DNA from: an uncultured Thermoleophilia bacterium
GTDB taxonomy: Bacteria > Actinomycetota > Thermoleophilia > UBA2241
Direction: 5' to 3'
NCBI GenBank assembly: GCA_963715985.1
Contig: CAVQSP010000003.1
Location: 1 to 64,000, forward strand
DNA length: 64,000 bases
Shown: positions 23,801 through 64,000 of the stretch, in pieces
How the letters are laid out: each line of letters opens with the position of its first letter
How positions within the stretch are numbered: position 1 is the first letter of the stretch
The notes under the pieces: generated by a model
The model's database searches: none
What the model saw: the letters and a program-made list of their open reading frames with translations, nothing else
Told to the model about the DNA's origin: nothing
Position numbers and translations under genes: made by a program

Positions 23801-24778
23801 GTGGAACTTGTCTATCTGAGCCAGGCCGACGTGGAGGGCCTGGGCATGTCCATGAGAGAAGTGCTCGACGCGCTCGATCTGGGCTTCGCCGCCAAGGGAC
23901 GCGGCAACACGGAGATGCCTCCTAAGCCCGGCATCCACACGCGGCCCGACTGCTTCATCCACGCGATGCCCGCCTATGTGCAGGAGCTCGAGGTCGCCGG
24001 CCTCAAATGGGTCTCCGGCTACCCTCCCAACCCCGCCAAGGGCCTGCCCTACATCACCGGGCTGCTGGTCCTCAACGACTGCGAGACCGGCGTACCGCTG
24101 GCCGTGATGGATTGCGCCTGGATCACCGCCATGCGTACCGGCGCGAGCGCCGGGATCTCGGCCAGGTACCTGGCCCGTGGGGGCAGCGAGTGCGCGGCCA
24201 TCGTCGGCTGCGGCGTGCAGGCGCGCACCAGCCTCATGGCGCTGGTGGAGGAACTGCCGGCGCTCACCGAGGTGCGCTGCTACGACCTGTTCCCCGAAGC
24301 CACGCAGCGCTTCATCGCCGACATGGCGGCGCGGTTCCCGGCACTGCGTTTCGAGACGTGCGCGTCGGCGCCCGAAGCCGCGCGCCCGGCCGACGTGGTG
24401 GTCACGGCCGTGCCGATCGTCGTGGACCCGGAGCCCGACCTCGACGCCGGCATGCTCAAAGAGGGCGGCCTCGCCGTCTCGCTCGACTACGACTCCGCCT
24501 GGACCGGCGCGGCCATGCAGGAGTGCGACAAGTTCTGCTCCGACGACATCGGTCAGCTGCTCTCCACCAAAGAGCATGGGGTGTACTTCGGCGGGATCCC
24601 CGCGGCCATCAGCGCCGATCTCGGCGAGCTGGCCGCGGGTCTCAAGCCCGGCCGCGAGAACGAGCGCGAGCGCATCTTCTCGATGAACATGGGCATCGCC
24701 GTCGACGACATGGTCACGGCCAAGGTGCTCTACGAGCGCGCCCTCGAGCGGGGCGCGGGCGTGCGCCTGCCGCTCTGA
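23801..24778 (+). CDS. Ornithine cyclodeaminase/mu-crystallin family protein
   Basis: MPPK, HAMPA, GLKWVSGYP.NP, ITAMRTGA, IVGCGVQA, ADLGEL and GIAVDDMVTA. Confidence 0.9.
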   Translation: MELVYLSQADVEGLGMSMREVLDALDLGFAAKGRGNTEMPPKPGIHTRPDCFIHAMPAYVQELEVAGLKWVSGYPPNPAKGLPYITGLLVLNDCETGVPLAVMDCAWITAMRTGASAGISARYLARGGSECAAIVGCGVQARTSLMALVEELPALTEVRCYDLFPEATQRFIADMAARFPALRFETCASAPEAARPADVVVTAVPIVVDPEPDLDAGMLKEGGLAVSLDYDSAWTGAAMQECDKFCSDDIGQLLSTKEHGVYFGGIPAAISADLGELAAGLKPGRENERERIFSMNMGIAVDDMVTAKVLYERALERGAGVRLPL

Positions 24779-24795
24779 CGCAGAAGGAGACGACC

Positions 24796-26221
24796 ATGCT
24801 GAGAAAGAGCAACCTGGGCTTCCGCGTCCTCAGCGACGCGCAACGTGCGGAGCTCCACTCCGCCGCCCTGGAGGTCCTCGCGCGCGTCGGCGTCGAGATC
24901 CACGGCGAGCAGGCGCTCGAGGTGGCGAGGCAGGCCGGCGCCTACGTCGAGGGCAGCCGTGCGAGGTTCCCGGCGGCGCTGGTCGAGAAGTGCATCCGCA
25001 GCGCCCCCTCCCGGGTCGTCCTCTGCGACCGCTACGGGAACCGCACGATGATGCTCGAGGGCGAGCGCTTCTACTACGGCGCCGGCCCCACGGCGATCTA
25101 CACCATCGACCCGTTCACGGGGGAGCGCAGGATCCCCGGCATCGAAGACACGCGCCGCGCCGCGCGCGTGATGGACGCGCTGCCGAACATCGACTTCCAG
25201 ATGGACTTCGGCAGCGTCGGGGACGTCGATCCCAGGTTCATGGACGTCCACGCCTTCGAGGCCATGCTGAGCAACTCGACCAAGCCGATCGTCCACTGGG
25301 CCTACACGCACGCAGAACTGCCGGGCGATGATCGACATGGCGGCCGAGGTCGCCGGAGGGGCCGCCAAGCTGCGCGCGAACCCGTCCTTCGCGATCTACT
25401 CCGAGCCCGTCAGCCCGCTGATGCACGAGGCCGAGGCGCTCGACGTCGCCATGCTCATGGCCGAGAACGGCCTGCCGGCCATCTACACGCCGGCGCCTCT
25501 GGGCGGAGCCACCGCGCCTGCGACCCTGGCCGGCATCATCGTGATCTCCCTGTGTGAGTCGCTCAGCGGGCTGGTGTTGCACCAGACCGTCAGGGAGGGC
25601 GCCCCGTTCATCATGGGCGGCGTGATCACGATCCTCGACATGGCGGCCATGCAGATCACCTACGGTTCGCCGGAGTTCATGCTGATGGCCGCGGGGCTCG
25701 CCGAGATGGCGCGCTACTACCAGATCCCCTCGTTCAGCACCGGCGGGTGCTCCGACGCCAAGAGCTGCGACGGCCAGCACGCCGCCGAGATCTCGCAGAA
25801 CCTGCTCATGGCCGCGATGAGCGGCGGCAACCTCATCCACGACTCCGGCTATATGGAGTCGGGCAACTGCACTTCGCTGCAGTCGCTGGTGATCGCCGAC
25901 GAGCTCATCGGCCAGGTGAAGCGGCTGGTGAGGGGCATCGAGGTCTCGCAAGAGACCCTTGCTCTCGACGTCATCGCCGCCGCGGGCCCCGGCGGCAACT
26001 TCATGACGCAGCGGCACACCAAGAAGCACTTCCGGGACGAGTGGTTCTTCCCCACGCTCTTCAATCGGCGCGGGTACCAGGAGTGGGAGGACTCCGGCAG
26101 ACCCGATCTGGCGGCCAGGGCGCAGGCCAAGCTCCTCGGCATCATCGAAAGCCACCAGCCTCCACAGCTGGGCGACGAGACCAAGCAGAGGATCCGCGCT
26201 ATCGTCGATGGGCTGGAGTGA
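24796..26221 (+). CDS. MttB-superfamily corrinoid methyltransferase, non-pyrrolysine; frameshift near 25315
   Basis: LHSAALEVLARVGV, DALPNIDF, EPVSPL, GGATAPATLAG, STGGCSDAKSCDGQ (Cys at the Pyl site) and HDSGYMESG. Confidence 0.88.
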
Positions 26222-48383: not shown

Positions 48384-48505
48384 TACAGCATCTCAGCCGT
48401 CTGCCGGAGTCGTCGGTCGCAGAGGGGAGACCAGTAGGGCGGCCGGTGTTCTTCGACGATTCGGAGTGTCACGACACTTCGGACGAAGCAGGGGAGGCAC
48501 GCATC

Positions 48506-49876
48506 GTGATCAGGTATCTCGAGGTGGTCGATCGGGCCATGACAGGGCAGTACCGCAAGGAGATGGACTTCACCATGAAGGTGCTGGTCCCGAAGCTCAA
48601 GCAGTTGGTCGTGAAGCACGGCATCAAGTACGACCCCGACATCCCGGTGCCGTATGACGACGATCTTGCCGACCGCGTGTTCCAGGCGGGATTCGAACTG
48701 TATCGGGACGTCGGGCTGTACTGCCCGGACTCGCAGCGCATCATGAGGTTCACGGAGGAGGAGCTGCTGCAGGCGCTCAAGGACTCCCCGGCCGAGACTG
48801 TCCTCGGGGAGGGCAAGCAGCAGCGCACCCTTGCGCCCCGGCAGCCGGACTCGGACGTCCCGCCGTGGTGCTGGCTCGGCGCCCTCGGCGCCGCGGTCTC
48901 CAACGAGGAGTTCTACTCCAGCATCATGGAGGCCTACGCCACCTACCTGCCTCTGGCCGACTCGATCACCGCGCCGAGCCTGGCGAGCTTCAATGGGCGA
49001 ACGGTGCGGACCGGCACTCCCCTGGAGGTGATCGCCGCGATGCGGGTCACCAGCCTGGGAAAGGACGCCCTGCGCCGGGGCAACCGGCCGGGGCTTCCCA
49101 TCATGAACTCCATTGCCACGGCCGGTTCCGACGTCGCGAAGATCGCCGGCAGCTCCTTCGGGCTGCAGACCTGGGACACGTGGGTCGTCGGCCACACCGC
49201 CGAATTCAAGCTCGGCTTCGAGCGACTCAACGAGATCGCCTGGATCATCGGCACCGGGGGAGGACTCATCGCCGAGTGCGCCCCGATCCTCGGCGGCTAC
49301 TGCGGGGGGCCGGAGGGCGTCGCGGTGGCCAATGCAGCCTACCTTCTCAGCGGCATCATCGCGATGCAGGCCGACGCCTTGCTCACCTTCCCGACCCATT
49401 TCAACCTCGGGTGCACCACCGAACGCTCTGTGATCTGGGCGAAGTCGGTGAGCGTGCAGGCCATGACCCGCAACAGCCACTTCCCCGTCTTCGTGGATCA
49501 CTACACCGCCCACGGCCCCATGACGGAGATGTTCTTCTACGAGAATGCCGCCGACGTGATCGCCTCGGTGGTCTCCGGCGGCCATGTCACCGCCACGGGC
49601 TCCGCCAAAGGCACGCACATGGACCACTTCACGCCCATGGAGCCTCGGTTCTCTGGCGAGGTGGCGCACGGCTCCGCGGGCATGACCCGAGAAGAGGCCA
49701 ACGAGATCGTCAAGCGCCTGCTCGAGCGGTACGAGAGCACGCTGGCCCAGGCCTCCCCCGGGCAGACGTACGAAGAGTGCTGGGACACCCGCCGCAAGGA
49801 GCCGAACCCCGAGTACGTCGAGCTCTACGAGTCGGTGACGAAGGACCTCGCGAGTCTGGGGGTCCGGCTCGTCTGA
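48506..49876 (+). CDS. mtmB: Monomethylamine:corrinoid methyltransferase (MtmB) family protein lacking pyrrolysine
   Basis: DRAMTG, FQAGFEL, GLYCPDSQRIMRFTEEE, PILGGYCGG, GPMTEM, SAKG, TPMEPRF.GEVA and GQTYEECWD match the MtmB pattern. RPGLPI-M-NS has ATG (49103-49105) where MtmB has RPGMGV-O-GP. Confidence 0.88.
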   Translation: MIRYLEVVDRAMTGQYRKEMDFTMKVLVPKLKQLVVKHGIKYDPDIPVPYDDDLADRVFQAGFELYRDVGLYCPDSQRIMRFTEEELLQALKDSPAETVLGEGKQQRTLAPRQPDSDVPPWCWLGALGAAVSNEEFYSSIMEAYATYLPLADSITAPSLASFNGRTVRTGTPLEVIAAMRVTSLGKDALRRGNRPGLPIMNSIATAGSDVAKIAGSSFGLQTWDTWVVGHTAEFKLGFERLNEIAWIIGTGGGLIAECAPILGGYCGGPEGVAVANAAYLLSGIIAMQADALLTFPTHFNLGCTTERSVIWAKSVSVQAMTRNSHFPVFVDHYTAHGPMTEMFFYENAADVIASVVSGGHVTATGSAKGTHMDHFTPMEPRFSGEVAHGSAGMTREEANEIVKRLLERYESTLAQASPGQTYEECWDTRRKEPNPEYVELYESVTKDLASLGVRLV

Positions 49877-49970
49877 GCCCGGCAGACACGGCGGGGCGCC
49901 GGGCCCGGCTGGCGGGCGCGCCGGGTTCGCGTCCGCGGTGGCGAGCACAACTGGCAAGAGGGAGAGTGCG

Positions 49971-50636
49971 ATGGAACGGCTCTTTGCAGAACTCAAGCAA
50001 GCGGTCATCACCGCTGACGAAGGGCTCGCGAGCGAGGCCGCGAGGCAGGTCGTGGCCCAGAGCGACGATCTTCTCGCTGCCGTTGAGCAGGGTCTGTCAG
50101 CGGGGATGACGGTCATCGGACAGGACTTCGAGAGGGGTGAGTGCTTCCTCCCCGAGCTCATCGGCGCCTCCCAGGCGTTCAACGCCGCCATGAAGGTCCT
50201 GGAGCCGGAGATCGACAAGGCCGGTGGAGACTTGAAGCGCCCCGGCGTCGCGGTGGTGGGCACCGTGGCGGGCGACGTGCACAACATCGGCAAGGACATC
50301 TTCGCCATGCTGCTGAAGGTCCGCGGCTTCGAGGTCCACGACCTCGGCGCGGACGTCTCCATGGGGAGCTACGTGGAGGCGGTGGAGGAGGTCGGTGCGG
50401 ACCTGATCGGAATGTCCGCGCTGCTCACGACCACCATGCCGAGCCAGAAAGAGGTCATCGACATGCTCGGCGAACTGGGCATGCGTGACAGGTATGTCGT
50501 CATGGTCGGCGGCGGTCCGGTGTCCCAGCAATGGGCCGACCAGATCGGTGCGGACGGCTACGCCGACACGGCGGAGGAGGGCGCTGAGCTCGCCCTCAAG
50601 CTGGTCGCCGAGAAGAAGGCGAAGACGACCGCTTGA
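49971..50636 (+). CDS. Corrinoid protein (MtmC/MttC-like), copy 3
   Basis: CFLPEL, GTVAGDVHNIGK (DxHxxG), SALLTTT and VGGGP. Confidence 0.92.
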   Translation: MERLFAELKQAVITADEGLASEAARQVVAQSDDLLAAVEQGLSAGMTVIGQDFERGECFLPELIGASQAFNAAMKVLEPEIDKAGGDLKRPGVAVVGTVAGDVHNIGKDIFAMLLKVRGFEVHDLGADVSMGSYVEAVEEVGADLIGMSALLTTTMPSQKEVIDMLGELGMRDRYVVMVGGGPVSQQWADQIGADGYADTAEEGAELALKLVAEKKAKTTA

Positions 50637-50697: not shown

Positions 50698-52056
50698 ATG
50701 ACAATGACTGAGTTTGGGCCCTATCTCAAGGTGAACGAAGGAGGGCAGCTCGAGATCGAAGGGCTCTCGGTGGTCGACCTCGCAGAACAGTACGGCACAC
50801 CGCTCTTCGTCATCTCGGAGAACACCATCCGGGCCCGCATCCGCCGGATGCAGAAGGCGTTCACCGACCACTACCCCAACGAGATGATCATCTGCGTCGG
50901 CATGAAGGCCCAATGGGGCCTGGCCGTGCGCCGGGTCGTGGTCAAGGAGGGGGCCGGCGGCGACGCCTTCGGTCTGGGTGAGCTGACCGTCGCGATGATG
51001 GCCGGCTCTGACCCGAGGAAGATCGTCCTCAACGGGGCGAACAAGGCCGAGGATGCTCTGCGCGCTGCCATCGACACGGGCATCCTGATCCAGGTCGACC
51101 ACGAGGACGAGCTCGAGGCGGTCGAGAGGCTGGCCGGCGAGATGGGCAAGACGGCCCGGGTGTCACTGCGGATCCGCCTGCCGCTCAACGCCATCGAGGA
51201 GGTCGTCTACGTCGACCCGCGCTACCCCGAAGGCATCAGCCCCACCTACTGGGAGCGGACCTTCAAGTTCGGTCTGGACCCCGAGAACTACTTCGCGGAG
51301 GTCGAGCGGGCCCTGGCGCTGAAGAACATCTCCCTTGAAGGCGTCATGTACCACGGCGGTATCCCGCGTCGCGCGGGGTACTTCCGCGAAGAGACCGAGG
51401 AACTGGTCGACATGATCGGCCAGATCAAGGCGAAGTTCGGGTGGTCACCCCAGTACCTCAACATCGGCGGCGGCTTCGTGCCCGAGCGGGTGGGACAGGA
51501 GATCCCCCCGTCGATCGAGGAGTACGCCGAGGTCATCAGCAAGGCCATCGTCTCCAAGTGCGAGGAGCACGGTCTCCCGGTGCCGGTGCTTCTGGCCGAG
51601 CCGGGACGCTACTGCGTGGACAGCGCAGGCATCTGGGTCGTCAAGGTCGGCAGCCTCAAGGACGACCGCAATCTGGCGAAGAAGAAGTGGGTCTACGTAG
51701 ACGGCAACACCAACGAGATGGGCGACCCCTTCGACCCGTACAATCGCGTCCACCACGTCGTCATCGCCAACGACCCGTACCGGGAGGGCACCGAGGTCGT
51801 CGAGATCGCCGGCCAGACGTGCAACGCGGCGGACGTCCTCGTCAAGGACCGCGAGCTTGCCAAGATGCGGGTGGGCGACACCCTCGCCTTCCTCGAGATG
51901 GGAGCCTACAACGAGGGCTTTGCCTGCCAGTCCAACGCCATCCCCAGGTCGGCCACGGTGATGGTGTGCGACGGGCGCGCGGCGGTCGTTCGGCGCAGAG
52001 AGACCGTGTCGGACGTACTCGCTCGCGAGAGCGTGCCGCCATGGCTGATGACCTGA
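50698..52056 (+). CDS. PLP-dependent fold-type III decarboxylase, divergent diaminopimelate decarboxylase (LysA)-like
   Basis: LAEQYGTPLFV, GMKAQ (PLP Lys), LNGANK, KFG, LNIGGGF, AEPGRY, GQTCNAADV and MGAY. Confidence 0.82.
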   Translation: MTMTEFGPYLKVNEGGQLEIEGLSVVDLAEQYGTPLFVISENTIRARIRRMQKAFTDHYPNEMIICVGMKAQWGLAVRRVVVKEGAGGDAFGLGELTVAMMAGSDPRKIVLNGANKAEDALRAAIDTGILIQVDHEDELEAVERLAGEMGKTARVSLRIRLPLNAIEEVVYVDPRYPEGISPTYWERTFKFGLDPENYFAEVERALALKNISLEGVMYHGGIPRRAGYFREETEELVDMIGQIKAKFGWSPQYLNIGGGFVPERVGQEIPPSIEEYAEVISKAIVSKCEEHGLPVPVLLAEPGRYCVDSAGIWVVKVGSLKDDRNLAKKKWVYVDGNTNEMGDPFDPYNRVHHVVIANDPYREGTEVVEIAGQTCNAADVLVKDRELAKMRVGDTLAFLEMGAYNEGFACQSNAIPRSATVMVCDGRAAVVRRRETVSDVLARESVPPWLMT

Positions 52057-52105
52057 ACGGCTCTTCGCACCTTGTGACGCGTCCGGACAAAAGGAGGCGA
52101 CCGGA

Positions 52106-53573
52106 GTGAAACGTAATGTGCATGCGGGACATCGCATGAGCGGCGGCTTGCGCCTCGAAGTATTCACGCCCGACGAGCTCCAGGACATCCATCTGGGGAC
52201 ACTCGATGTGCTCGAGCGGACCGGCGTCTACGTCGAGAGCGAGGAGGCCCAGGAGATCTTCGCGGGGGCCGGCGCGCGGGTCGGGGCCGACGGCGTCGTG
52301 AGGATCCCCGGGTCACGTCGTCGAGGAGGCCATCCGCTCCACGCCGTCGCAGCTTGCGATGTACGGACGGGATCCCAAGCACGACGTCGTCCTCGAGGAC
52401 GGACGCGTCAACTTCCTCAACTTCGGTGAGGCCGTCTTCGTCGCCGATCCCGAGACCGGAGAGCTGCGGCAGACGTTGAAGCAGGACGTCGCCGACATCT
52501 CGCGGGTCATCGACGCGCTGCCCCAGATCGACGCGATCCTGCGGCCGGCCGGCGCCCACGACGTGCCCGAGCCGGTGGGCCCGCTCCACAACGCTGAGGC
52601 GATCTTCACGAACTGCTCCAAACACGCCATCATCGGCCCCCTGACCGGCTACCTGGCGCGGCGCATGCGCGAGATGGCGGCGGCGCTCGTGGGCGGGGCG
52701 GAGCAGCTGCGTGAGCGCCCCATCTTCTCCTACGTGGTCTGTCCGGTCAGCCCTCTCAATCTGCCGAAGGACGTGAGCGACGTCATCGTCGAGGGCGCGC
52801 GCGAGGCGGTGCCGACATCCGTCGTGTCGATGGCGCTGGCGGGGGGCTCCGCGCCTGTGAACCTGGCGGGCGCAGTCATCGTGCACAACGCAGAGGTGCT
52901 CTCCGCCCTCACCCTGGCGCAGCTGACCAGGCGTGGCGCCTCGATGATCTACGGGAGCTCGACGACCGCGCTCGACCTGCGCTACGCGGTCGCCACGGTG
53001 GGCAGCCCCGAGTGCGGGCTCATCAACGCCGCCATCGCCTGCCTCGCGCGTCACTACGGCCTGCCCAGCTGGGTCGCCGGCTTGTAGGGCGACTCCAAAG
53101 TGGTGGACGCGCAGTCCGGCCACGAGAAGACCCTCACCGGTCTGCTGACGGCGTTGGCAGGTGCCAACCTCATCTACGGTGCGGGGATGCTCGACACGGC
53201 CATGACCATCGATTACGGCCAGCTGGTGCTGGACGCCGAGTTCGCCGAGCTCATCAAGTGCTGCGTCAACGGGGTGCCCGTGAACGACGAGACGCTCTCG
53301 CTCGACGTGATCAACGACGTCGGCCCCTTCCACGACTTCCTCAGCCACGCCGACACCCTGCGCCACATGCGCATCCAGTCGCAGCCCATGTTGGTCGACC
53401 GCCGCGTCCGCGAGGAGTGGAGCGCCAACGGGTCGACGGACATCGCCGAGCGCGCCACCGCCAGGGCCCGCGAGATCCTTGCGACGCACGTGCCCACGCC
53501 GCTCCCGGAGGGTGCGGCGGAGGAGATGCGGGCCATCATCAGGAACGCGGAGCGCGAACTCGGGTGCACGTGA
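52106..53573 (+). CDS. mttB: Pyrrolysine-containing MttB-family methyltransferase, copy 1 (in-frame TAG 53085-53087; +1 frameshift near 52312)
   Basis: ORFs 52106, 52359..53087 and 53100..53573 form one MttB. LPSWVAGL-TAG-GDSKVVDAQSGHEKT aligns to the Pyl motif AGT-O-SDAK..AGHEK. Confidence 0.9.
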
Positions 53574-53693
53574 GGGTTGCCGGTGGCGCGGAAGAGGCAC
53601 GCCGGCTTGGAGCAGCGCAGGGCCGGAGGATGAGCCGGGAAGGCTCCTGGAGCACCGGCGATCCGTCTCTCGTCGCCGGGTCAGGGTGAGGCG

Positions 53694-54386
53694 TCAGGCC
53701 GCCGACCCGGCTCCCGGGTGGGTGGCTCGGCCGGCGCCGCCGGCCGACTCGGTGGCCGCGCCCGCGGTCCTTCGCGTCGAGATCCACACGTCGAGGATCG
53801 ACTCGAGCATGTCGTAGGCCTCGCCGGTGTCGAGTTTCTCCGGGTCCATCGCATATTGCACAGCCAGCCCGTCGACCACGGCGATGATCAGCCTCGTGAA
53901 ACCGCGCATCTCGCGCGGTGTCAGGTCGGGGAGGTCGTCCGCGAGGATGCGGCTGTAGGTCTCCATGGCCCACTCGTACAGTGCCGTGATGCGCGCGTTG
54001 TGGCGTTCGTCGCGCAGGATCTCCGGGAGCAACTCGAGGAACGCGAGGTAGAGATCCGTGTTCTCGCTCATCTGCTGCTTGGCCTCGCGGAACGCGTGGA
54101 GCCGCTCCTCGGCCGGTCGCGCGACGAGCCCCGGGAGGACGAGGCCGATGTTCTCGTGGACCCAGGTGTCCACCACCGCCTCCATGAGGCCGGCCTTGTT
54201 CCCGAAGTAGTACCGGATCGCCGTCTTGTCGAGCCCGCAGGCGCTCGAGACACTCTCCAGGGTGAGCGATGGATAGCCCTTCTGGATGAGGAGGCGCAGC
54301 GACTCTTCGACGATCCGCTGTGCGGTCGGGGGCAGCTCGGCGAGAGGATCACGCTGAGCGACTGAGGCTTTGGCTCCCACTCCCAC
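53694..54386 (-). CDS. TetR/AcrR-family regulator
   Basis: DPLAELPPTAQRI..GYPSLTLESVSSACGLDKTAIRYYFGNKAGL; AAGGAGG RBS. Confidence 0.87.
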   Translation of the reverse strand: MGVGAKASVAQRDPLAELPPTAQRIVEESLRLLIQKGYPSLTLESVSSACGLDKTAIRYYFGNKAGLMEAVVDTWVHENIGLVLPGLVARPAEERLHAFREAKQQMSENTDLYLAFLELLPEILRDERHNARITALYEWAMETYSRILADDLPDLTPREMRGFTRLIIAVVDGLAVQYAMDPEKLDTGEAYDMLESILDVWISTRRTAGAATESAGGAGRATHPGAGSAA

Positions 54387-54453
54387 TCGTCCTCCTTGGC
54401 GGATGGCTGGCACGGGAGCGCCTGATGCCGGAGATCGGCGGGTGCTTCCGCGA

Positions 54454-54515
54454 TTGACACGGTCCCAAGTGATGCTACAGTCTACACCCACCGGTGGGTG
54501 GCCACCACGCGGTGG
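54454..54515 (+). promoter_or_regulatory. prpE-mttB operon promoter TTGACA-N16-TACAGT with perfect palindrome CACCCACCGGTGGGTG
   Basis: -35 at 54454-54459, extended -10 at 54476-54481, palindrome at 54485-54500 and a weaker second site at 54503-54515. Confidence 0.72.
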
Positions 54516-54553
54516 ACTCAATCGTCTCGCCGCCGCCCGATGCGAGGAGCTAC

Positions 54554-56458
54554 ATGAGTGAAGCATACGAAGCGGCCTACCAGGCGTCCATCCTGCGGCC
54601 GGAGAGCTTCTGGGCCGAGGCCGCCGAGGGCATCGAGTGGACGCGGCGCTGGGACGCGGTCCTCGACCGCAGCGCCGCTCCCGCCCCGCGCTGGTTCGCC
54701 GGCGGCAGCCTCAACACCTGCTACAACGCCATCGACCGTCACGTCCTCGCCGGCAGGGGGGAGGCCGCCGCGGTCATCTACGACAGCCCGGTGACGGGCG
54801 CGAACGCGCGCCTCACCTACGCCGAGCTCCTCGAGGAGGTCTCGCGCTTCGCCGGCGGCCTGCGCGATCTTGGCGTGGAGCGCGGCGACCGTGTCGTCAT
54901 CTACATGCCGATGATCCCGCAGACGCTCGTCGCCATGCTCGCCTGCGCGCGCCTCGGCGCGGTGCACTCCGTGGTCTTCGGCGGTTTCGCCGCGCAGGAG
55001 CTCGCGACCCGCGTCGACGACGCCGAGCCCAAGGTCATCGTGTGGGCCTCGTGTGGGATCGAGGGCAGCCGGGTCATCCCCTACAAGCCGCTGCTCGACC
55101 GCGCCATTGAGCTGGCGCAGCGGCCGCCGGCGGCTACGGTCGTCTTCCAGCGCGAGCAGCAGCTCGCGCCGCTCGTCGACGGCAGGGACCACGACTGGGG
55201 CGAACTGAGGCGGGCCGCGCCGGCCGCCTGCGTCTCCGTCGCGGCCACGGACCCCCTCTACATCCTCTATACGTCGGGGACGACCGGCAAACCGAAGGGC
55301 GTGGTCCGGGACCACGGCGGCCACGCCGTCGCCCTGCTCTGGTCGATGAGGAACCTCTACGACGTCGGCCCCGGCGAGGTCTTTTGGGCCGCCTCCGACA
55401 TGGGTTGGGTGGTCGGCCACTCCTACATCGTCTACGCGCCGCTGCTGGCCGGCGCCACCACCGTCGTCTACGAAGGCAAGCCGGTGGGCACGCCGGACGC
55501 CGGCGCCTTCTGGCGCGTCATCGCCGAGCACCGCGTCAAGGCGCTCTTCACGGCCCCGACCGCGATCCGCGCGATCCGCCGCGAGGACCCGCAGGGCGAG
55601 CTCGTGAAGAGCTACGACACGAGCTCCCTGGAGGCGCTCTACCTGGCCGGGGAGCGTCTCGACCCCGACACCTACCACTGGGCCGGCGAGGTCCTCGGCG
55701 TGCCGGTGGTCGACCACTGGTGGCAGACCGAGACCGGCTGGGCGATCTGCGCCAACTGCCGGGGCCTCGAGGAGCTGCCCATGAAGGCGGGCTCGCCGAC
55801 AAGGCCGGTGCCGGGCTTCGACCTCGTGGTGCTGGATGCGTCCGGCGAGCCGCTGGAGCCGCCGGCGGAAGGCACCCTGGCCTTGCGCCTGCCCTTGCCC
55901 CCCGGCGCGCTGCCGACGCTGTGGCACAACGACGAGGGCTTCGTGACCACCTATCTGGCGCCGTTCCCCGGCTACTACTTCACCGGCGACAGCGGCAGCA
56001 TCGACGCGGACGGCTACGTCTTCGTCATGGGTCGCGTCGACGACATCATCAACGTCGCCGGTCACCGGCTTTCGACGGGGCGCATGGAGGAGGTCCTCGC
56101 CGCCCATCCTGACGTCGCCGAGTGCGCCGTGGTCGGTGCTGCCGACGACCTCAAGGGTCAGATCCCGCTGGGGCTCGTGGTGCTCAAGGAGGGAGCCGCC
56201 CGCGAGCCCGAGGATGTCACCGCCGAGCTCGTGCGTATGGTGCGCGAGCAGGTCGGGCCGGTGGCTGCCTTCAAGCGCGCGCTGGTCGTCCAGCGTCTGC
56301 CCAAGACGCGCTCCGGCAAGATCCTGCGCAGCGCCATCCGCAAGCTCGCCGACGGCGTCGAGTTCGCGACGCCGGCGACCATCGAGGACGCCTCCGTCAT
56401 CGAGGACCTGCGGATCGCCTTGGGTCATGACCAGCGCACGCAATCGCCGACCGGCTGA
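54554..56458 (+). CDS. prpE: Propionyl-CoA synthetase / short-chain acyl-CoA ligase
   Basis: LNTCYNAIDRH, HSVVFGGFA, YTSGTTGKPKG, VDHWWQTETG, YFTGD, NVAGHRLSTG and PKTRSGKILR. Confidence 0.9.
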   Translation: MSEAYEAAYQASILRPESFWAEAAEGIEWTRRWDAVLDRSAAPAPRWFAGGSLNTCYNAIDRHVLAGRGEAAAVIYDSPVTGANARLTYAELLEEVSRFAGGLRDLGVERGDRVVIYMPMIPQTLVAMLACARLGAVHSVVFGGFAAQELATRVDDAEPKVIVWASCGIEGSRVIPYKPLLDRAIELAQRPPAATVVFQREQQLAPLVDGRDHDWGELRRAAPAACVSVAATDPLYILYTSGTTGKPKGVVRDHGGHAVALLWSMRNLYDVGPGEVFWAASDMGWVVGHSYIVYAPLLAGATTVVYEGKPVGTPDAGAFWRVIAEHRVKALFTAPTAIRAIRREDPQGELVKSYDTSSLEALYLAGERLDPDTYHWAGEVLGVPVVDHWWQTETGWAICANCRGLEELPMKAGSPTRPVPGFDLVVLDASGEPLEPPAEGTLALRLPLPPGALPTLWHNDEGFVTTYLAPFPGYYFTGDSGSIDADGYVFVMGRVDDIINVAGHRLSTGRMEEVLAAHPDVAECAVVGAADDLKGQIPLGLVVLKEGAAREPEDVTAELVRMVREQVGPVAAFKRALVVQRLPKTRSGKILRSAIRKLADGVEFATPATIEDASVIEDLRIALGHDQRTQSPTG

Positions 56459-56508
56459 CAGGCACGAGCCCGGCCCCCTCACGGGCCCCCGAGGAAGGTA
56501 GGACAGCA

Positions 56509-57981
56509 GTGAAACGCAATCTCCATGCCGGCCGCCGCCGCAGCGGCGGCCTGCGCCTCGACGTCTTCACCGACGACGAGCTCTCCGACATCCATCTGGC
56601 GACGCTGGACGTGCTCGAGCGCACCGGGGTCGGCGTCGAGAGCGAGGAGGCGCAGGAGATCTTCGCCGGGGCCGGCGCCCGCGTGCAGAGCGACGGGATC
56701 GTCAAGATCCCCGGCCACGTCGTCGAGGAGGCGATCGCCAGCACTCCGTCGCGGCTCGTCTGCTACGGGCGCGACCCCAAGCACGACATCGTGCTCGAGG
56801 ACGGGCGCGTCGGCTTCACCAACTTCGGCGAGGGCATCCAGGTCATCGATCCCTACACCGGCGAGCTGCGCCAGACCGGCAAGCAGGACGTCGCCGACTG
56901 CTCGCGGATCATCGACGCACTGCCCGAGATCGACGTCATCGAGCGGCCGCTGGGGGCGCACGACGTGCCGGAGGCCACCGGTCCGCTTCACAACGCCGAC
57001 GCCATCATGACCAACTGCTCGAAGCACGCCTTCATCGGCCCCCTGACCGGCTACCTCGCGAGCCGCATGCGCGAGATGGCAGCCGCCATCGCCGGCGGCG
57101 CCGAGAAGCTGCGCGAGCGGCCGATCCTCTCGTACGTGATCTGTCCGGTGGCGCCGCTCGGGATGATCCGCGACGTCTGCGACATCATCATCGACGGCGC
57201 CCGCAACCACGTGCCTATCACGCCGGTCTCGATCGTCATGGCCGGCGGCTCCTCGCCCATGAACCTGGCGGGCGCCGTGGTCACGACCAACGCCGAGATC
57301 CTGGGCTGCCTGACGCTGGCCCAGCTGACCCGCAAGGGGACGCCGGTCGTGTACGGAAGCTCATCGTCCTCGATGGACCTCCGCTACGCCTCCGCCTCCG
57401 TGGGCAGCCCCGAGTGCGGCCTCATCAACGCCGCCATCGCCTGTATGGCGCGCGCCTACCTCCTGCCCAGCTGGGTCGCGGGGCAGTAGGGCGACTCCAA
57501 AGTGGTGGATGCCCAGTCCGGCCACGAGAAGACCCTCACCGGTCTGCTGACGGCGTTGGCAGGTGCCAACCTCATCTACGGTGCGGGGATGCTCGAGAGC
57601 GGCATGACCATCGATTACGGCCAGCTCGTCATGGACGCCGAGTTCGCGCGTCTCATCAAGTACACGGTCGCCGGCGTGCCGGTCAGCGACGAGACGCTCT
57701 CGCTCGACGTGATCAACGACGTCGGCCCCTTCCACGACTTCCTCAGCCACGCCGACACCCTGCGCCACATGCGCACCCAGAGCCAGCCCACGCTCATCGA
57801 CCGCCGCGTCCGCGAGGAGTGGAGCGCCGACGGTTCGACGACCATCCACGAGCGTGCCACGGCCCGCGCCCGCGAGATCCTCGAGACCCACGTGCCCACG
57901 CCGCTGCCCGAGGGCGCCGCCGCCGAGATGGCCGCCATCATCGCCGACGCAGAGCGGCACCTGGGGGTGACGAAAGCATGA
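56509..57981 (+). CDS. mttB: Pyrrolysine-containing MttB-family methyltransferase, copy 2 (in-frame TAG 57487-57489, codon 327 of 490)
   Basis: ORFs 56509..57489 and 57502..57981 are in the same frame and separated only by TAG-GGC-GAC-TCC-AAA; WVAGQ-O-GDSKVVDAQSGHEK. Confidence 0.95.
57376..57972 (+). repeat. About 600-bp direct repeat, apparently identical to 62409..63005 (3' halves of mttB copies 2 and 3)
   Basis: Constant offset of 5033 nt; sequences matched wherever compared by eye and the translated C-termini are identical up to HLGVT. Confidence 0.85.
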
Positions 57982-59370
57982 ACGACATGACGCACATCGA
58001 GCCCGACCCTGCTCGGGAGCAGCGCATCCGCGACCTCGACCGCGAGTACGTCCTGCACTCCTGGTCCGTGCAGTCGCAGATCAGGCCGCTGCCTGTGGCC
58101 GGCGCCGACGGGCGCTACTTCTGGGACTACGAGGGCAAGCGCTATCTCGACTTCTCGTCTCAGCTCGTCAACGTCAACATCGGGCATCAGCACGCCAAGG
58201 TGGTCGAGGCGATCGTGGAGCAGGCGCGCACGCTCTGCACGATCGCGCCCTCCGTGGCGAACGAGAAGCGCTCGGAGCTCGCCCGGCTGCTGGCCGAAGT
58301 CACGCCGGGCAACCTCAAAGCGTCCTTCTTCACCAACGGCGGCGCGGAGGCCAACGAGAACGCCATCAAGCTCGCCCGCTGGTACACGGGCAGGCAGAAG
58401 ATCATCGCCCGCTACCGCTCGTACCACGGGGCCACGGCCGGCGCCATCGCGCTGACCGGCGACCCCCGTCGCTGGCCCGCCGAGCCGAGCATCCCGGGCG
58501 TGGTGCGCATGTTCGACCCCTACACCTACCGCTGCTCGGCCGGGCGACGGGGCGAGACCGTGGCCGAGCACGTGGCCGCCTGCCCCGTGTGCGCGGGCGG
58601 CCCTCACCTGGAGGAGATCCTCCAGTACGAGGGGCCGCACACGGTGGCCGCGGTGATCCTCGAAACGGTCACCGGCACCAACGGCATCATCGTCCCGCCG
58701 GACGGTTACCTGCAGTCGATGCGCGAGGTGTGCGACCGCCACGGCGTCCTGCTCATCCTCGACGAGGTCATGGCCGGCTTCGGGCGCACCGGCACGCTGG
58801 TTCGCCTGCGACCACTGGGACGTCATGCCCGACATCATGACGGTAGCCAAGGGCATCAACTCAGGCTACGTACCGCTCGGGGCGATGGTCGTCAGCGAGC
58901 CCATCGCCGAGTGGCTGCAGGACAAGTACCTCGCCGGCGGTCTCACGTACAGCGGGCACCCGCTGGCCTGTGCCTCGGCCGTGGCCTCCATCGAGGCGTT
59001 TCGTGAGGAGGGCATCGTCGAGAACGCCGCGGCGATGGGCGACGTCCTGGCGGTCGAGACGGCGGCGCTGGCCGCCCGGCATCCGTCGGTCGGTGAAGTG
59101 CGCGGCCTGGGCCTCTTCTGGGGTCTCGAGCTGGTGCGCGACCGGGAGACGCGCGAGCCCCTGGTGCCCTTCAACGCTGCCGGCGACGCAGCCGCGCCGA
59201 TGGCGCGCCTGGGGAAGGCGGCCATGGAGCGTGGCCTCCTCCTGATGACTCACTTCAACGTCCTCGTGATCTGCCCGCCTCTCACCATCACGCGCGAAGA
59301 GCTCGCGGAGGGTCTGGCCGTGATAGACGAGGTTCTCACGCTCTCCGACCTGGAGTGCGCCCAGCCATGA
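57978..59370 (+). CDS. Class III PLP aminotransferase (omega-amino acid/beta-alanine/taurine:pyruvate type); frameshift near 58797
   Basis: YLDFSSQLVNVNIGH, TNGGAEANENA, RSYHGAT, ILDEVMAGFGRTG, AKGINSGY (PLP Lys) and GLTYSGHP; ATGA overlap with mttB copy 2. Confidence 0.9.
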
Positions 59371-59434
59371 CCGCCCACTCCGCGCGACGAGGGATCAGCA
59401 CAGCACGGGCCCTGGCCCCGACGAAAGGATCGAC

Positions 59435-60934
59435 ATGAGCGTCGCACCCCCTGTGACTTTCAACCTCCTGGAGCCGCCGAAGCAGCACTACGGCGTGCTG
59501 CGCAACTTCATCGGTGGCAAGTGGGTGGACGTCGAGACCGACCGCGTCGTCGACGTGGACGACCCCGCAAGCGGCAAGGTCATCGCCCAGGTCCCCATCA
59601 GCACCACAGACCAGGTCAACGACGCCATCCAGGCAGCCCAGGACGGCTACCAGACCTGGCGCCGGACGCCCCCGGGGGACCGCGGCCGCTTCATGTTCGA
59701 GATCCGTGCGGCGATGCAGCGGCACGCGGAGGAGCTGTCCCGCCTGGTCACTCAAGAGAACGGCAAGGTCATCGCCGAGGGCCGCGGCGAGGCTATGCGG
59801 ACGATCGAAGCGGTCGAGACCGCCGCCGCCATCACGAGCCTCATGGGCGGCTATCAGCTCGAGGACGGCGCCGCCCGCAACATCGACGAGATGGTCGTGC
59901 GCCAGCCGCTCGGCGTCTGCGCCTGCATCACGCCGTTCAACTTCCCGATCATGATGACCGGCTTCTGGTGGCCTTACGCCATAGCCGCCGGCAACACCTT
60001 CGTGGTGAATCAGTCGAAACAAACGCCTATCACCATCACGCGCGTCTTCGAGATCATCGAGGAAGTGGGCCTTCCCGCCGGCGTCATGAACCTCGTGCAG
60101 GGCGACCGCACCGCCTCCGCGGCCTTCATGGACTCTCCGCAGATCAAGGCGGTCGGCTTCATCGGTTCGACCCCGGTCGCCAAGGAGATCTACCGCCGGG
60201 CCGGCGAGACCGGCAAGCGCTGCGTGGCCAACGGCGGCGCCAAGAACTTCGCCGTGTTCATGCCGGACGCCGACGTCGACCGCAACATGGGCAACCTGAT
60301 CACGAGCTTCTTCGGCTGCACGGGTCAGCGCTGCCTGGCCACCGCGGTGGTGCTGGCGGTCGGCGACGTCTACGACGAGCTCGTCGAGAAGTTCGTGGCC
60401 GCGACGCGGGCACTCAAGGTCGGCCCCGGGCTCGACGAGAGCGTCCACATCGGCCCCGTCATCTCGGCAGCGGCAAACGCCCGCATCCGCGACTACATCC
60501 AGAGCGGCATCGATCAAGGCGCCGAGCTTCTGGTGGACGGGCGCGACGTCGAAGTTCCGGGCTATGAGGGCGGCCACTATGTCGGGCCCACCATCTTCGA
60601 CAACTGCACCCCGGACATGACGATCTGTCAGGACGAGATATTCGGCCCCGTGGCGGCGATCGTGCGCGTCAAGGACCTCGACGAGGCGCTCGCCATCACC
60701 AACGCCTCCCCTTACGGCAATCAGGCCGTGATCTACACGAGCAACGGGGGCCATGCGCGCCGCTTCTGGTACGAGGTCGAGGCCGGAAACATCGGCGTGA
60801 ACATCGGCGTGGCCGCTCCGGTGGCGTATTACCCGTTCGCCGGCATGAAGGACTCACACTACGGCAACGGCTACGCGATGCGCGATTCGTTCGACCTGTT
60901 CACCGAGAAGAAAGTCGTCATCACCCGCTGGTAG
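59435..60934 (+). CDS. mmsA: CoA-acylating (methyl)malonate-semialdehyde dehydrogenase
   Basis: ITPFNFP, FIGSTPVA, GGAKNF, GCTGQRCLA, EIFGPV, YGNQAVIYT, GVNIGVAAP and KVVITRW; TAG stop. Confidence 0.88.
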   Translation: MSVAPPVTFNLLEPPKQHYGVLRNFIGGKWVDVETDRVVDVDDPASGKVIAQVPISTTDQVNDAIQAAQDGYQTWRRTPPGDRGRFMFEIRAAMQRHAEELSRLVTQENGKVIAEGRGEAMRTIEAVETAAAITSLMGGYQLEDGAARNIDEMVVRQPLGVCACITPFNFPIMMTGFWWPYAIAAGNTFVVNQSKQTPITITRVFEIIEEVGLPAGVMNLVQGDRTASAAFMDSPQIKAVGFIGSTPVAKEIYRRAGETGKRCVANGGAKNFAVFMPDADVDRNMGNLITSFFGCTGQRCLATAVVLAVGDVYDELVEKFVAATRALKVGPGLDESVHIGPVISAAANARIRDYIQSGIDQGAELLVDGRDVEVPGYEGGHYVGPTIFDNCTPDMTICQDEIFGPVAAIVRVKDLDEALAITNASPYGNQAVIYTSNGGHARRFWYEVEAGNIGVNIGVAAPVAYYPFAGMKDSHYGNGYAMRDSFDLFTEKKVVITRW

Positions 60935-60991
60935 GACTGGGCGCCGTTCGCCGGCGCCCGATCTCCGCGAGCGCGAGCTGGAGGAGTTTGG

Positions 60992-61348
60992 ATGGACAAG
61001 GACGCGATCCTCATCAAGAGCGGCGACGTCGCCCCCATCGTGCCGCCGAAGCACAGGAACACGGACACCTGGGTCATGGTGCGTCCGGCCACGACGGGCA
61101 ACACGCAGTGCGAGTTCTTCGTCACGGAGATGCGGCAGGGCGGCGGCGCCGACTGGGACACCCACCCGGGCTGCGAGCACATCTACTTCGTGATGGCCGG
61201 CCGCGCCAAGATGTGGGTGGAGGAAGAAGAGTTCGATCTGGAGCCCGGTGACTGTCTCCTGATGCGCGAGGGCGTCCGCCACAAGGTCGATGTGGTCGGC
61301 AGCGAGACCTTTCGCATCGGGGTGGTCTTCGCGCCGGGGCGCGTGTGA
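60992..61348 (+). CDS. Cupin-domain protein
   Basis: THPGCEHIYFVMAG and GVRHKV metal-binding cupin motifs; GGAGGAG RBS. Confidence 0.85.
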   Translation: MDKDAILIKSGDVAPIVPPKHRNTDTWVMVRPATTGNTQCEFFVTEMRQGGGADWDTHPGCEHIYFVMAGRAKMWVEEEEFDLEPGDCLLMREGVRHKVDVVGSETFRIGVVFAPGRV

Positions 61349-61541
61349 AGAGCTGCCGACAGACGCGATGCGCGCGCCGGGCGCTGAGCAAGGGAGCGGG
61401 CGGGACCGCTTGCGAACCGGACGTAACGGTGGTGAGCTTGAGCGAAGCGCGGCAAGGTCCACCGCCGCGGTCGGGCGCTTCAAGCAGCTCACGGGTATGG
61501 CCACCGTCGTCTGACGGGGCTCCGAGGAAGCGAGGACAGCA

Positions 61542-63014
61542 GTGAAACGCAATCTCCATGCCGGCCGCCGCCGCAGCGGCGGCCTGCGCCTCGACGTGTT
61601 CACCGACGACGAGCTCTCCGACATCCATCTCGGCACCCTCGACGTGCTCGAGCGCACCGGGGTCTACGTCGAGAGCGAGGAGGCCCAGGAGATCTTCGCC
61701 GGGGCCGGCGCCCGCGTCGGCGCGGACGGGGTCGTGAGGATCCCCGGCCACGTCGTCGAGGAGGCGATCGCCAGCACGCCCTCGCGGCTCGTCTGCTACG
61801 GCCGCGACCCCAAGCACGACGTCGTGCTCGAGGACGGGCGCGTGGGCTTCACCAACTTCGGCGAGGGCATCAACGTCGTCGACCCCTACACCGGCGAGCT
61901 GCGCCAGACCGTGAAGCAGGACGTCGCCGACTGCTCGCGGATCATCGACGCACTGCCCGAGATCGACGTCATCGAGCGGCCTCTGGGGGCGCACGACGTG
62001 CCCCAGGAGACGCAGCCTCTGCACAACGCCGAGGCGATCCTCACAAGCTGCTCGAAGCACGCCTTCATCGGCCCCATGACCGGCTACCTCGCGAGCCGCA
62101 TGCGCGAGATGGCGGCCGCCATCGCCGGCGGCGCCGAGAAGCTGCGCGAGCGGCCGATCCTCTCGTACATCACGTGTCCCATCAGCCCCCTCAAGATGGT
62201 GCAGGACGTCTGCGACATCGTCATGGAGGGCGCCCGCTCCGGCGTTCCCGTCAACGTCGTGTCCATGGCCATGGCCGGGGCGTCGTCCCCGGTGAACCTG
62301 GCCGGGACGTGCGTGTCACACAACGCCGAAGTGCTCTCCTGCCTCACGCTCGCCCAGCTCACGCAGAAGGGCGCGCCCATGGTCTACGGCAGTTCGACCA
62401 CGGGCATCGACCTCCGCTACGCCTCCGCCTCCGTGGGCAGCCCCGAGTGCGGCCTCATCAACGCCGCCATCGCCTGTATGGCGCGCGCCTACCTCCTGCC
62501 CAGCTGGGTCGCGGGGCAGTAGGGCGACTCCAAAGTGGTGGATGCCCAGTCCGGCCACGAGAAGACCCTCACCGGTCTGCTGACGGCGTTGGCAGGTGCC
62601 AACCTCATCTACGGTGCGGGGATGCTCGAGAGCGGCATGACCATCGATTACGGCCAGCTCGTCATGGACGCCGAGTTCGCGCGTCTCATCAAGTACACGG
62701 TCGCCGGCGTGCCGGTCAGCGACGAGACGCTCTCGCTCGACGTGATCAACGACGTCGGCCCCTTCCACGACTTCCTCAGCCACGCCGACACCCTGCGCCA
62801 CATGCGCACCCAGAGCCAGCCCACGCTCATCGACCGCCGCGTCCGCGAGGAGTGGAGCGCCGACGGTTCGACGACCATCCACGAGCGTGCCACGGCCCGC
62901 GCCCGCGAGATCCTCGAGACCCACGTGCCCACGCCGCTGCCCGAGGGCGCCGCCGCCGAGATGGCCGCCATCATCGCCGACGCAGAGCGGCACCTGGGGG
63001 TGACGGGGACATGA
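61542..63014 (+). CDS. mttB: Pyrrolysine-containing MttB-family methyltransferase, copy 3 (in-frame TAG 62520-62522, codon 327 of 490)
   Basis: ORFs 61542..62522 and 62535..63014 are in the same frame; WVAGQ-O-GDSKVVDAQSGHEK. Confidence 0.95.
62409..63005 (+). repeat. Second copy of the roughly 600-bp direct repeat (see 57376..57972)
   Basis: Apparently identical sequence at offset 5033. Confidence 0.85.
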
Positions 63015-63039: not shown

Positions 63040-64000
63040 GTGAGGCGCAACGCCGCCACGGAGCGCCGGCCTCTCGTCGGCGTGAGCATGCAGGTGCTGA
63101 GCCAGGACGGCATCGACGACATCCACCTCGCGACGCTCGAGGTCCTGGCGCAGGCAGGAGTGTTCGTCGAATCCGACGATGCCCTGGATGTGCTGGCCGA
63201 CGGCGGCTGCCGGGTGGACAAGGCGACGAAGATGGTGCGCATACCGCCCCACGTCGTCGAGGACGCGGTTCGCTCGGCGCCCCCGACGCTCGTCCTGCAC
63301 GGACGAGACCGCGCACGCGACGTGGTCGTCGAGCGGGGGCGGGGTGTCTTCACGAGCTTCGGCGAGGGCATCTTCGTCATCGACCCCTTCACCGGCGAGC
63401 GCCGCGAGCCGCGCAAGGATGATGTCGCGGCCTCCGCCGCCGCGGTCGATGCCCTCGATGAGCTCGGCATCTGCAACCGTGCGCTCGGCGCCCACGACGT
63501 CCCCCAGGCGGTCGCCGCCCTGCATACGGCCGACGCGATCCTGCGCAACACGACCAAGCACGTCTTTCTCGGCCCGCAGCGCGGCTTCCTCGCGGAGAGT
63601 ATCGTGGGTCTGCAGGCGGTCATCCTGGGGTCCGCGGACGCCGTCCGCGAGCGTCCCCTGGTCACCTTCACCGCGTGCCCCGTGAGCCCACTCAAGCTGG
63701 CCCGTGACTGCTGCGAGGTCATCCTGGTGGCCGCTCGCAGCGGTGTCGGCGTCAACGTGGCCTCCATGGCCATGGCCGGCGGCTCATCGCCGATCACACT
63801 CGCCGGCACGCTGGTGACGCACAATGCCGAGGTGCTGGCCGGCATCACGCTCGCCCAGCTCGCCGAGCGGGGCGCGCCGGTGATCTACGGCAGCGTGAGC
63901 ACCGGCATGGACCTGCGCCTGGCGTCGGCGAGCGTCGGCTCACCCGAGCTCGCCCTCATCACCGCCGCGGTGGCGCAGCTGGCCCAGCACTACCGCCTGC
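63040..64000 (+). CDS. mttB: MttB-family methyltransferase of the same clade, copy 4 (3'-truncated by the window just before the Pyl position)
   Basis: GTG 63040 after AGGAG; frame open to the edge: IHLATLEVLAQAGV, FTSFGEG, CPVSPL, SMAMAGGSSPITLAG, VGSPE and LAQHYRL. Absent from the ORF track because it has no stop in the window. Confidence 0.88.
   Translation, partial: MRRNAATERRPLVGVSMQVLSQDGIDDIHLATLEVLAQAGVFVESDDALDVLADGGCRVDKATKMVRIPPHVVEDAVRSAPPTLVLHGRDRARDVVVERGRGVFTSFGEGIFVIDPFTGERREPRKDDVAASAAAVDALDELGICNRALGAHDVPQAVAALHTADAILRNTTKHVFLGPQRGFLAESIVGLQAVILGSADAVRERPLVTFTACPVSPLKLARDCCEVILVAARSGVGVNVASMAMAGGSSPITLAGTLVTHNAEVLAGITLAQLAERGAPVIYGSVSTGMDLRLASASVGSPELALITAAVAQLAQHYRL

Follow-up and report, generated by a model that had tools for sequence, protein, structure and literature searches.

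Three mttB genes interrupted by TAG at the same codon

The window analysed here, a 64,000-nucleotide stretch of contig C3 of a bacterial genome assembled from metagenomic DNA, contains three genes of the trimethylamine:corrinoid methyltransferase (MttB) family, each of which is interrupted by a single in-frame TAG at the codon corresponding to pyrrolysine (Pyl). Open reading frames (ORFs) were called under translation table 11, under which the region appears as three same-frame ORF pairs with TAG joining each pair, and read-through frames were made by reading TAG as sense. All three genes lie on the + strand and begin with GTG: copy 1 at 52106..53573 (TAG at 53085-53087), copy 2 at 56509..57981 (TAG at 57487-57489) and copy 3 at 61542..63014 (TAG at 62520-62522). 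In copies 2 and 3, each 490 codons long, TAG is codon 327 and is followed by 163 further codons before the frame ends in TGA. In copy 1 the frame is split by one surplus base in a CCCCGGG run near 52310, and removal of this base makes TAG codon 327. Since a related-strain contig from another sequencing run (X2) is one base shorter at 52310, giving ...IPGHVVEE... again, the break in copy 1 is either a homopolymer error or strain-specific. A first-pass annotation of this DNA had reported the three TAGs, their codon number after correction of the copy 1 indel, the surrounding motif LPSWVAG[L/Q]-TAG-GDSKVVDAQSGHEKT and about 160 further MttB-like codons, and all of these were confirmed when positions and frames were re-read.

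Full-length matches to PF06253 (MTTB) were obtained for the three copies at 296.3, 307.8 and 243.6 bits (296 for copy 2), and the part of copy 1 from 52359 to 53573 matched with an E-value of 3e-72. The GC content at third codon positions (GC3) of the approximately 160 codons downstream of each TAG was 0.92-0.95, equal to that of the upstream part. Comparison of copies 2 and 3 gave a sharp mosaic, in which gene nucleotides 868-1464 (597 nt, TAG included) are 100% identical whereas nucleotides 601-867 are only 72% identical. This pattern is taken as a sign of gene conversion between them, the alternative being an artefact of assembly or polishing; because the identical tract spans TAG, the TAGs of copies 2 and 3 are not independent observations.

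TAG falls on the pyrrolysine position of MttB

Copy 2, with TAG read as K, was aligned with Methanosarcina barkeri MttB (7xcl_A and 7xcm_A) over residues 2-483 at an E-value of about 1e-108 (9e-108 for 7xcl_A), and TAG fell on X334, the Pyl residue of 7xcl_A. The equivalence with O334 that the first-pass annotation had put forward was thus borne out, while the Methanosarcina motif it gave, VAGT-O-SDAK, was slightly off, 7xcl_A reading VAGS-X-SDAK. According to the passages of PMC9842639 on this site, Gly110, Tyr364, Gly372, Thr111 and Met249 lie around Pyl in MttB, with Gly110 and Tyr364 fully conserved in Pyl-MttBs. The equivalents of Gly110, Tyr364 and Gly372 are all retained in the three window copies. 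In the genome as a whole, the Tyr364 equivalent is kept in all 10 TAG copies, and Gly110 is replaced in two copies outside the window (on contigs C10 and C14), of the 8 TAG copies for which the alignment covered this residue.

The window copies share with M. barkeri MttB (7XCL, 7XCM and 7XCN) the full-length alignment and UAG at the Pyl334 column. They differ from it in that Thr111 is replaced by Glu, as in all Pyl-clade copies of this genome, and Met249 by Ile in copy 2; the host differs in being bacterial, in its 70% GC and in the 10 gene copies of its genome, and copies 2 and 3 have no mttC as a direct neighbour.

Pyl-site genes of the genome and their phylogeny

Searching the genome with PF06253 gave 89 matches in roughly 45 genes, 10 of which carry TAG in one and the same alignment column within a common motif, AGx-TAG-xDxK. 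Searches for the two other methylamine methyltransferase families gave a similar picture: the 15 matches to PF09505 were counted as 11 mtbB genes, all with TAG (8 intact and 3 split), and PF05369 yielded 2 mtmB genes with TAG, aligned to the Pyl position of 1l2q/1tv2, along with about 5 homologs without it. The total is therefore about 23 Pyl-site genes (10 mttB, 11 mtbB and 2 mtmB), 16 of them with otherwise intact frames. Contig C14 carries canonical gene pairs, namely mtmB-mtmC (twice), mtbB-mtbC and mttC-mttB. A stop at this one catalytic codon is beyond chance, given the 10 genes that share the column and the relatives described below.

The remaining approximately 35 MttB paralogs of the genome, several of which lie in the window, belong to the same fold family as the window copies and resemble the non-Pyl MttB superfamily (MtgB of Desulfitobacterium hafniense, PDB 2QNE, and quaternary-amine methyltransferases); they differ in having a sense codon at the Pyl column, in lacking the Tyr of LIYG and in falling into separate clades. 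A FastTree phylogeny was built from 38 full-length MttB paralogs, 7 rows of fewer than 400 residues being left out. The 8 TAG genes included formed one clade with 99% support, in which one non-TAG member was nested, and the three window copies formed a subclade with 100% support. The latter bears out the view of the first-pass annotation that Pyl-MttBs have been amplified, the window copies being a local amplification within the Pyl clade, with copies 2 and 3 probably homogenised by gene conversion.

The nested non-TAG paralog begins directly after copy 3 (63040..64000, + strand, continuing to about 64506 of contig C3). Its Pyl column is occupied by Leu (CTC), and Tyr364 is replaced by Ala, similar genes of two relatives having Ala or Val there; it has the look of a former Pyl enzyme that no longer uses pyrrolysine. 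As this gene lacks both TAG and Tyr364, the loss of Pyl and the loss of the activating Tyr are coupled.

In a screen for further Pyl genes, in-frame pairs of coding-like ORFs (GC3 of at least 0.85) joined by TAG were collected, which gave 70 pairs, 36 of them with high GC3 directly past TAG. Beyond mttB, mtbB and mtmB these pairs look like adjacent genes or antisense frames, as judged without family searches. One candidate in the window, an aldehyde dehydrogenase gene (59435-60934) with a 637-codon read-through into a cupin, was rejected, the Aldedh domain ending at residue 495/499 and the cupin being a separate domain. In the mtbB gene L073:5562-8306 on contig C4, a second in-frame TAG occurs soon past the end of the Pfam match and is followed in the same frame by a gene for a major facilitator superfamily (MFS) transporter. 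If this second TAG is the stop of the gene, its read-through would fuse mtbB and the transporter.

The pyl genes and tRNA-Pyl

The first-pass annotation had named tRNA-Pyl and the pyl genes as what should accompany such TAGs elsewhere in the genome. They were found on contig C13 in the order pylB, pylC, pylD, tRNA-Pyl(CUA), about 1 kb of further sequence, pylSn, a corrinoid protein gene and, on the opposite strand, pylSc. The two parts of the synthetase are encoded by separate genes, and both exceeded the curated cut-offs (PylSc: TIGR02367, 316.5 bits against 178; PylSn: TIGR03912, 124.6 bits against 51), as did PylC (TIGR03909, 317.9 bits against 248) and PylD (TIGR03911, 199.5 bits against 150). 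PylB is present as well, but a shift of one base near C13:552660 divides it over two frames, with positions 5-252 and 240-347 of TIGR03910 matched at 303.8 and 125.8 bits. The tRNA-Pyl gene was located by ARAGORN at L003:5127-5199 and has the sole CUA anticodon among the 54 tRNAs found. Its fold is a cloverleaf in which the D-loop has 5 nt and the variable loop is short, both being hallmarks of tRNA-Pyl.

Conservation among relatives and in other sequencing runs

Among 401 genomes sampled from the class, PylSc was found in 83, comprising 73 of 79 genomes of the host's own family, 9 of 61 of one other family and none of 260 genomes of ten further families. When 401 genomes were sampled from the phylum, PylSc was found only in G000 and in one genome of the second PylSc-bearing family. 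Pyl-clade mttB occurs in 57 of 61 family genomes (E-value at most 1e-100), and TAG is kept in 148 of the 150 relatives' mttB matches that were listed, the lowest identity being 52%; another 88 matches lie beyond those listed. Likewise, mtbB, present in 38 of 41 family genomes, contains TAG in every one of the 150 matches listed, and a tRNA-Pyl gene was found close to pylSc at 17 of the 20 loci of relatives. PylSc and TAG-bearing mttB co-occur in most family genomes, including ones that are 97-100% complete with 1-2% contamination. As read from these genomes, the Pyl trait is one of the lineage, and the whole Thermoleophilia family appears to use pyrrolysine, with many mttB and mtbB copies per genome.

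We also compared the window with contigs of three other DNA sequencing runs. Contigs from runs X1 and X2 (52625-53141, 4 differences) cover the TAG of copy 1 and one from X11 (57044-57543, 3 differences) covers that of copy 2, and no change at either TAG was found among the differences listed (381 further differences were unlisted). Among the differences listed is C>A at 53096, 9 nt past the TAG of copy 1, which is synonymous.

Comparison with published Pyl systems

Pyrrolysine in Actinobacteria is not new. PylRS has been reported in 81 bacterial genomes, including 'two Actinobacteria', in a passage of JBC 2022 (PMC9630628), and a passage of mSystems 2023 (PMC10805028) describes Actinobacteriota metagenome-assembled genomes (MAGs) of Stordalen Mire, with the genus RBG-16-64-13 named, that express Pyl-encoding mttB and mtbB. 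These two passages take away the novelty that the first-pass annotation had implied in presenting the trait in a bacterium with actinobacterial DNA. The Stordalen Mire MAGs have the phylum, the gene families and the wetland/soil habitat in common with the present genome. The excerpts of PMC10805028 and PMC9630628 concerned give the trait one sentence each, with no gene counts, family distribution or RNA element.

As described in parts of PMC1976440 and PMC9630628, bacteria with a split PylS, namely D. hafniense and the delta-1 symbiont of Olavius algarvensis, share with this genome the separate pylSn and pylSc, pylBCD and pylT, TAG kept as a stop, multiple mtbB/mttB genes and tRNA-Sec. Points of difference are the phylum Actinomycetota and the gene order pylB-C-D-pylT ... 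pylSn ... corrinoid ... pylSc, in which pylSc is encoded on the opposite strand. The symbiont had 8 Pyl proteins, the largest bacterial set known in 2007 (PMC1976440, in part), against about 23 Pyl-site genes here. The passages of PMC13695967 on pyrrolysine treat the archaeal code only. A literature search found no published family-wide distribution or gene counts like these, the supplements and trees of the cited papers being outside it; searches combining pyrrolysine with Thermoleophilia turned up nothing beyond a serpentine-soil survey, and searches combining it with Actinomycetota by phylum name turned up nothing on the trait.

Probable decoding of the in-frame UAG as pyrrolysine and its alternatives

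On these grounds we consider it very likely that the three genes encode Pyl-dependent trimethylamine:corrinoid methyltransferases, in which the single in-frame UAG is read as pyrrolysine. The same decoding had been proposed in the first-pass annotation, and the pyl gene set, the alignment to Pyl334 and the family-wide conservation support it. Lysine would be converted to pyrrolysine by PylB, PylC and PylD, the split synthetase PylSn + PylSc would charge the only tRNA with a CUA anticodon, and the charged tRNA-Pyl would compete with release factor 1 (RF1) at UAG. In the resulting 490-residue enzyme, the pyrroline ring together with the Tyr364 equivalent is predicted to activate the methylamine, so that the methyl group could be passed to a Co(I) corrinoid protein; from there it would probably go to tetrahydrofolate and then to oxidation or acetyl-CoA synthesis. 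For the window copies, we infer read-through, substrate and methyl fate alike from sequence comparison.

Several observations weigh against this reading. Copy 1 and three of the seven other Pyl-site mttB genes are split by indels, and some of them could be real pseudogenes. The pylB gene is frameshifted in the assembly, and each of its pieces alone is under the curated cut-off of 348.2 bits. The count of about 23 genes may be inflated, since some contigs of the bin (88.8% complete, 7.3% contamination) are apparently duplicated. No corrinoid gene lies beside copies 2 and 3. The sole contig from an RNA library over the copy 3 site (run X19, 587 nt, 28 differences, 95% alike) comes from a relative and may be DNA. 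Finally, TAG ends about 21% of coding-like ORFs with no surplus of back-up stops.

The first alternative is that the TAGs are true stops, leaving pseudogenes or truncated 326-residue proteins with decaying downstream frames. The presence of RF1, the frequency of TAG as a stop and the several MttB-family genes broken by indels in this assembly would all fit. A decaying frame, however, does not agree with downstream parts that keep both their GC3 over about 160 codons and the Tyr364 and Gly372 equivalents, nor with TAG followed by an open frame in nearly all listed homologs down to 52% identity and with a full pyl set in the genome, and we regard true stops as very improbable.

Equally little credence is given to an artefact, in which the TAGs would be sequencing errors or the pyl cluster would have been mis-binned from another organism. 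Indel errors do occur in copy 1, in pylB and in the split MttB genes, the bin has 7.3% contamination, and the cluster lies on C13, not on C3. The errors seen are indels, however, not substitutions, in line with the remark of the first-pass annotation that indel-type assembly errors cannot explain the TAGs, and the contigs of the other runs show no listed change at the copy 1 and copy 2 TAGs. As for mis-binning, contigs C3 and C13 are both 70-71% GC, and PylSc is found together with TAG-mttB throughout most of the family.

It is also highly unlikely that UAG is read as a standard amino acid, through near-cognate decoding or another suppressor. Pyrrolysine synthesis could have been lost with the pylB frameshift; against this, the frame is shifted by one base only, in an assembly prone to indels, PylS, PylC and PylD are intact, and the sole CUA tRNA is tRNA-Pyl. 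Moreover, the loss of the Pyl-activating Tyr in the clade members with a sense codon argues for dependence of the TAG-bearing copies on Pyl chemistry.

Probable local recoding and ordinary TAG stops

Some archaea are reported to have every TAG reassigned to pyrrolysine. The stops of 2397 coding-like ORFs of the present genome were 1806 TGA, 509 TAG (about 21%) and 82 TAA, and prfA, encoding RF1, is present at 479.7 bits against a cut-off of 423. Back-up stops showed no surplus after TAG, the median distance to the next TGA/TAA being 91 codons versus 68.5 after TGA. Since TAG is still a common stop and RF1 is present, this is local recoding of particular UAGs and not a new genetic code; the code expansion announced in the first-pass annotation therefore stands as Pyl decoding but was overstated in its scope. 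Genome-wide reassignment of the archaeal type, with which about 23 Pyl genes and the lack of a back-up excess would agree, can be dismissed as extremely improbable in view of the 509 TAG-terminated ORFs, the prfA score and the aldehyde dehydrogenase at 59435-60934, whose Pfam domain ends at TAG with a separate cupin gene next in the same frame.

With RF1 kept, about one fifth of stops being TAG and no back-ups, this genome offers a good natural system for studying how bacteria discriminate Pyl-UAG from stop-UAG. This discrimination, together with the conserved downstream hairpin described below, is the main remaining interest of the locus.

RNA elements downstream of TAG

In Rfam, RF02510 (PYLIS_3) and RF02509 (PYLIS_2) represent the 100 nt after UAG of mttB and mtbB, respectively. 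All three window copies matched PYLIS_3 on the + strand well above its gathering score of 38, at 53085..53184 (73.9 bits), 57487..57586 (77.6 bits) and 62520..62619 (77.6 bits); the matches begin exactly at each TAG and comprise TAG and the next 97 nt. Much of this score may come from conserved coding sequence. Starting 66 nt past TAG, each copy has a 6-bp hairpin, GUUGGC-AGGU-GCCAAC in copy 1 (53153..53168, + strand), where it encodes part of ALAGAN, with the same GUUGGC/GCCAAC stem in copy 2 (57555..57570, +) and copy 3 (62588..62603, +). The consensus structure of PYLIS_3 does not contain this hairpin.

We compared the mttB hairpin over 32 distinct sequences (8 from the own genome and 24 from relatives), which gave the consensus GUUGGC-AGGN-GCCAAC with 99% of cells pairing. 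Compensatory changes were seen in 3 of the 6 pairs, each in one sequence, and the observed score was not attained in any of 500 shuffles. The hairpin is spelled with rare codons (TTG makes up 3.4% of Leu and GCA 3.6% of Ala codons in the genome), and in the three members of the clade whose Pyl site holds a sense codon only 4-5 of the 6 pairs are left, TTG having become CTC or CTG. There is little variation in most stem columns and the peptide motif is itself conserved, which makes this evidence suggestive but short of proof.

In mtbB the sites exceed the gathering score of PYLIS_2 and form a longer hairpin of 13-14 bp at +66 to +99, for instance at L074:3002-3121 (C11) and L073:6621-6740 (C4), with 91.8% of it paired and 3 pairs/12 cells changed on both sides; its distance from TAG is nearly that of the mttB hairpin, and its outer stem shows covariation from ATG/CGC to ATC/AGG. 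The consensus stem of PYLIS_2 is the inner stem of this hairpin. The +66 hairpin of mttB, together with the longer one of mtbB, might be a cis signal that aids the reading of UAG as Pyl while RF1 ends about 500 TAG stops, an idea that we put forward as rather unlikely; at 66 nt the hairpin lies out of reach of a ribosome decoding UAG.

Neighbouring genes and possible substrates

Upstream of copy 1, on the + strand, lie an MtmB-family homolog without TAG (48446..49876), whose residue at the Pyl202 position is Met and whose identity to M. barkeri MtmB is about 30%, then directly downstream of it a corrinoid (B12-binding) protein gene (49938..50636; PF02310 and PF02607), and a pyridoxal phosphate (PLP)-dependent decarboxylase of the ornithine/diaminopimelate/arginine type (50698..52056), which directly precedes copy 1. 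The corrinoid gene, two genes upstream of copy 1, encodes the sole candidate for a methyl acceptor in the vicinity of the three copies. Copies 1 and 2 flank a TetR/BetI-type regulator (53694..54566, - strand) and, directly upstream of copy 2, an adenosine monophosphate (AMP)-forming acetyl/acyl-CoA synthetase-like gene (54494..56458, +). The interval between copies 2 and 3 holds a class-III aminotransferase fragment (58825-59370, +), the aldehyde dehydrogenase (59435-60934, +), which ends in TAG, and the cupin (60992-61348, +). Elsewhere the window contains five other MttB genes or gene fragments of the non-Pyl kind, along with corrinoid fragments and genes of amine/acid catabolism. Because genes for the decarboxylase, aminotransferase, aldehyde dehydrogenase and acyl-CoA synthetase adjoin the paralogs, some of the 10 mttB and 11 mtbB paralogs may act on tertiary or secondary amines besides trimethylamine and dimethylamine, an idea drawn from the neighbouring genes only.

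Split or truncated genes are common in the window (7432-8857, 9218-9526, 21238-21513, 24742-26221 and 57981-59370, comprising MttB paralogs, corrinoid proteins and the aminotransferase), and contigs of metagenome runs are one base shorter at 58794 or 58797. These split genes fit frequent single-base indel errors of the assembly. Since gene callers split every TAG gene in two as well, the methylamine metabolism of this widespread wetland/soil lineage is mis-annotated.

Host and habitat

The source genome comprises 4.35 Mb in 22 contigs at 70% GC. Its nearest PylSc loci in genomes of GTDB species (n = 33, 68-79% identity) are labelled as 29 Thermoleophilia, 2 Actinomycetes, 1 Actinomycetota and 1 Deltaproteobacteria, and thus the host is supported, by its nearest PylSc hosts, as an uncultured Thermoleophilia bacterium of the phylum Actinomycetota, in line with the actinobacterial look of the DNA noted in the first-pass annotation. 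At least half of the sampled words of 52000-58000 were present in 18 DNA runs labelled as wetland or soil metagenome. If the family uses pyrrolysine, its members would probably compete with methylotrophic methanogens for methylamines.

Pyl users are usually described as anaerobes. A gene for heme-copper oxidase subunit I lies at C13:213624-214964, which places it with the pyl cluster on one 676-kb contig; an aerobic life style does not follow from it, the gene being patchy across the family (18 of 41 sampled genomes). A gene for acetyl-CoA synthase (CdhC) is located on contig C11. In addition, ARAGORN found a tRNA-Sec (UCA) at 139538-139635 of one contig of the genome, which therefore probably uses both selenocysteine and pyrrolysine.

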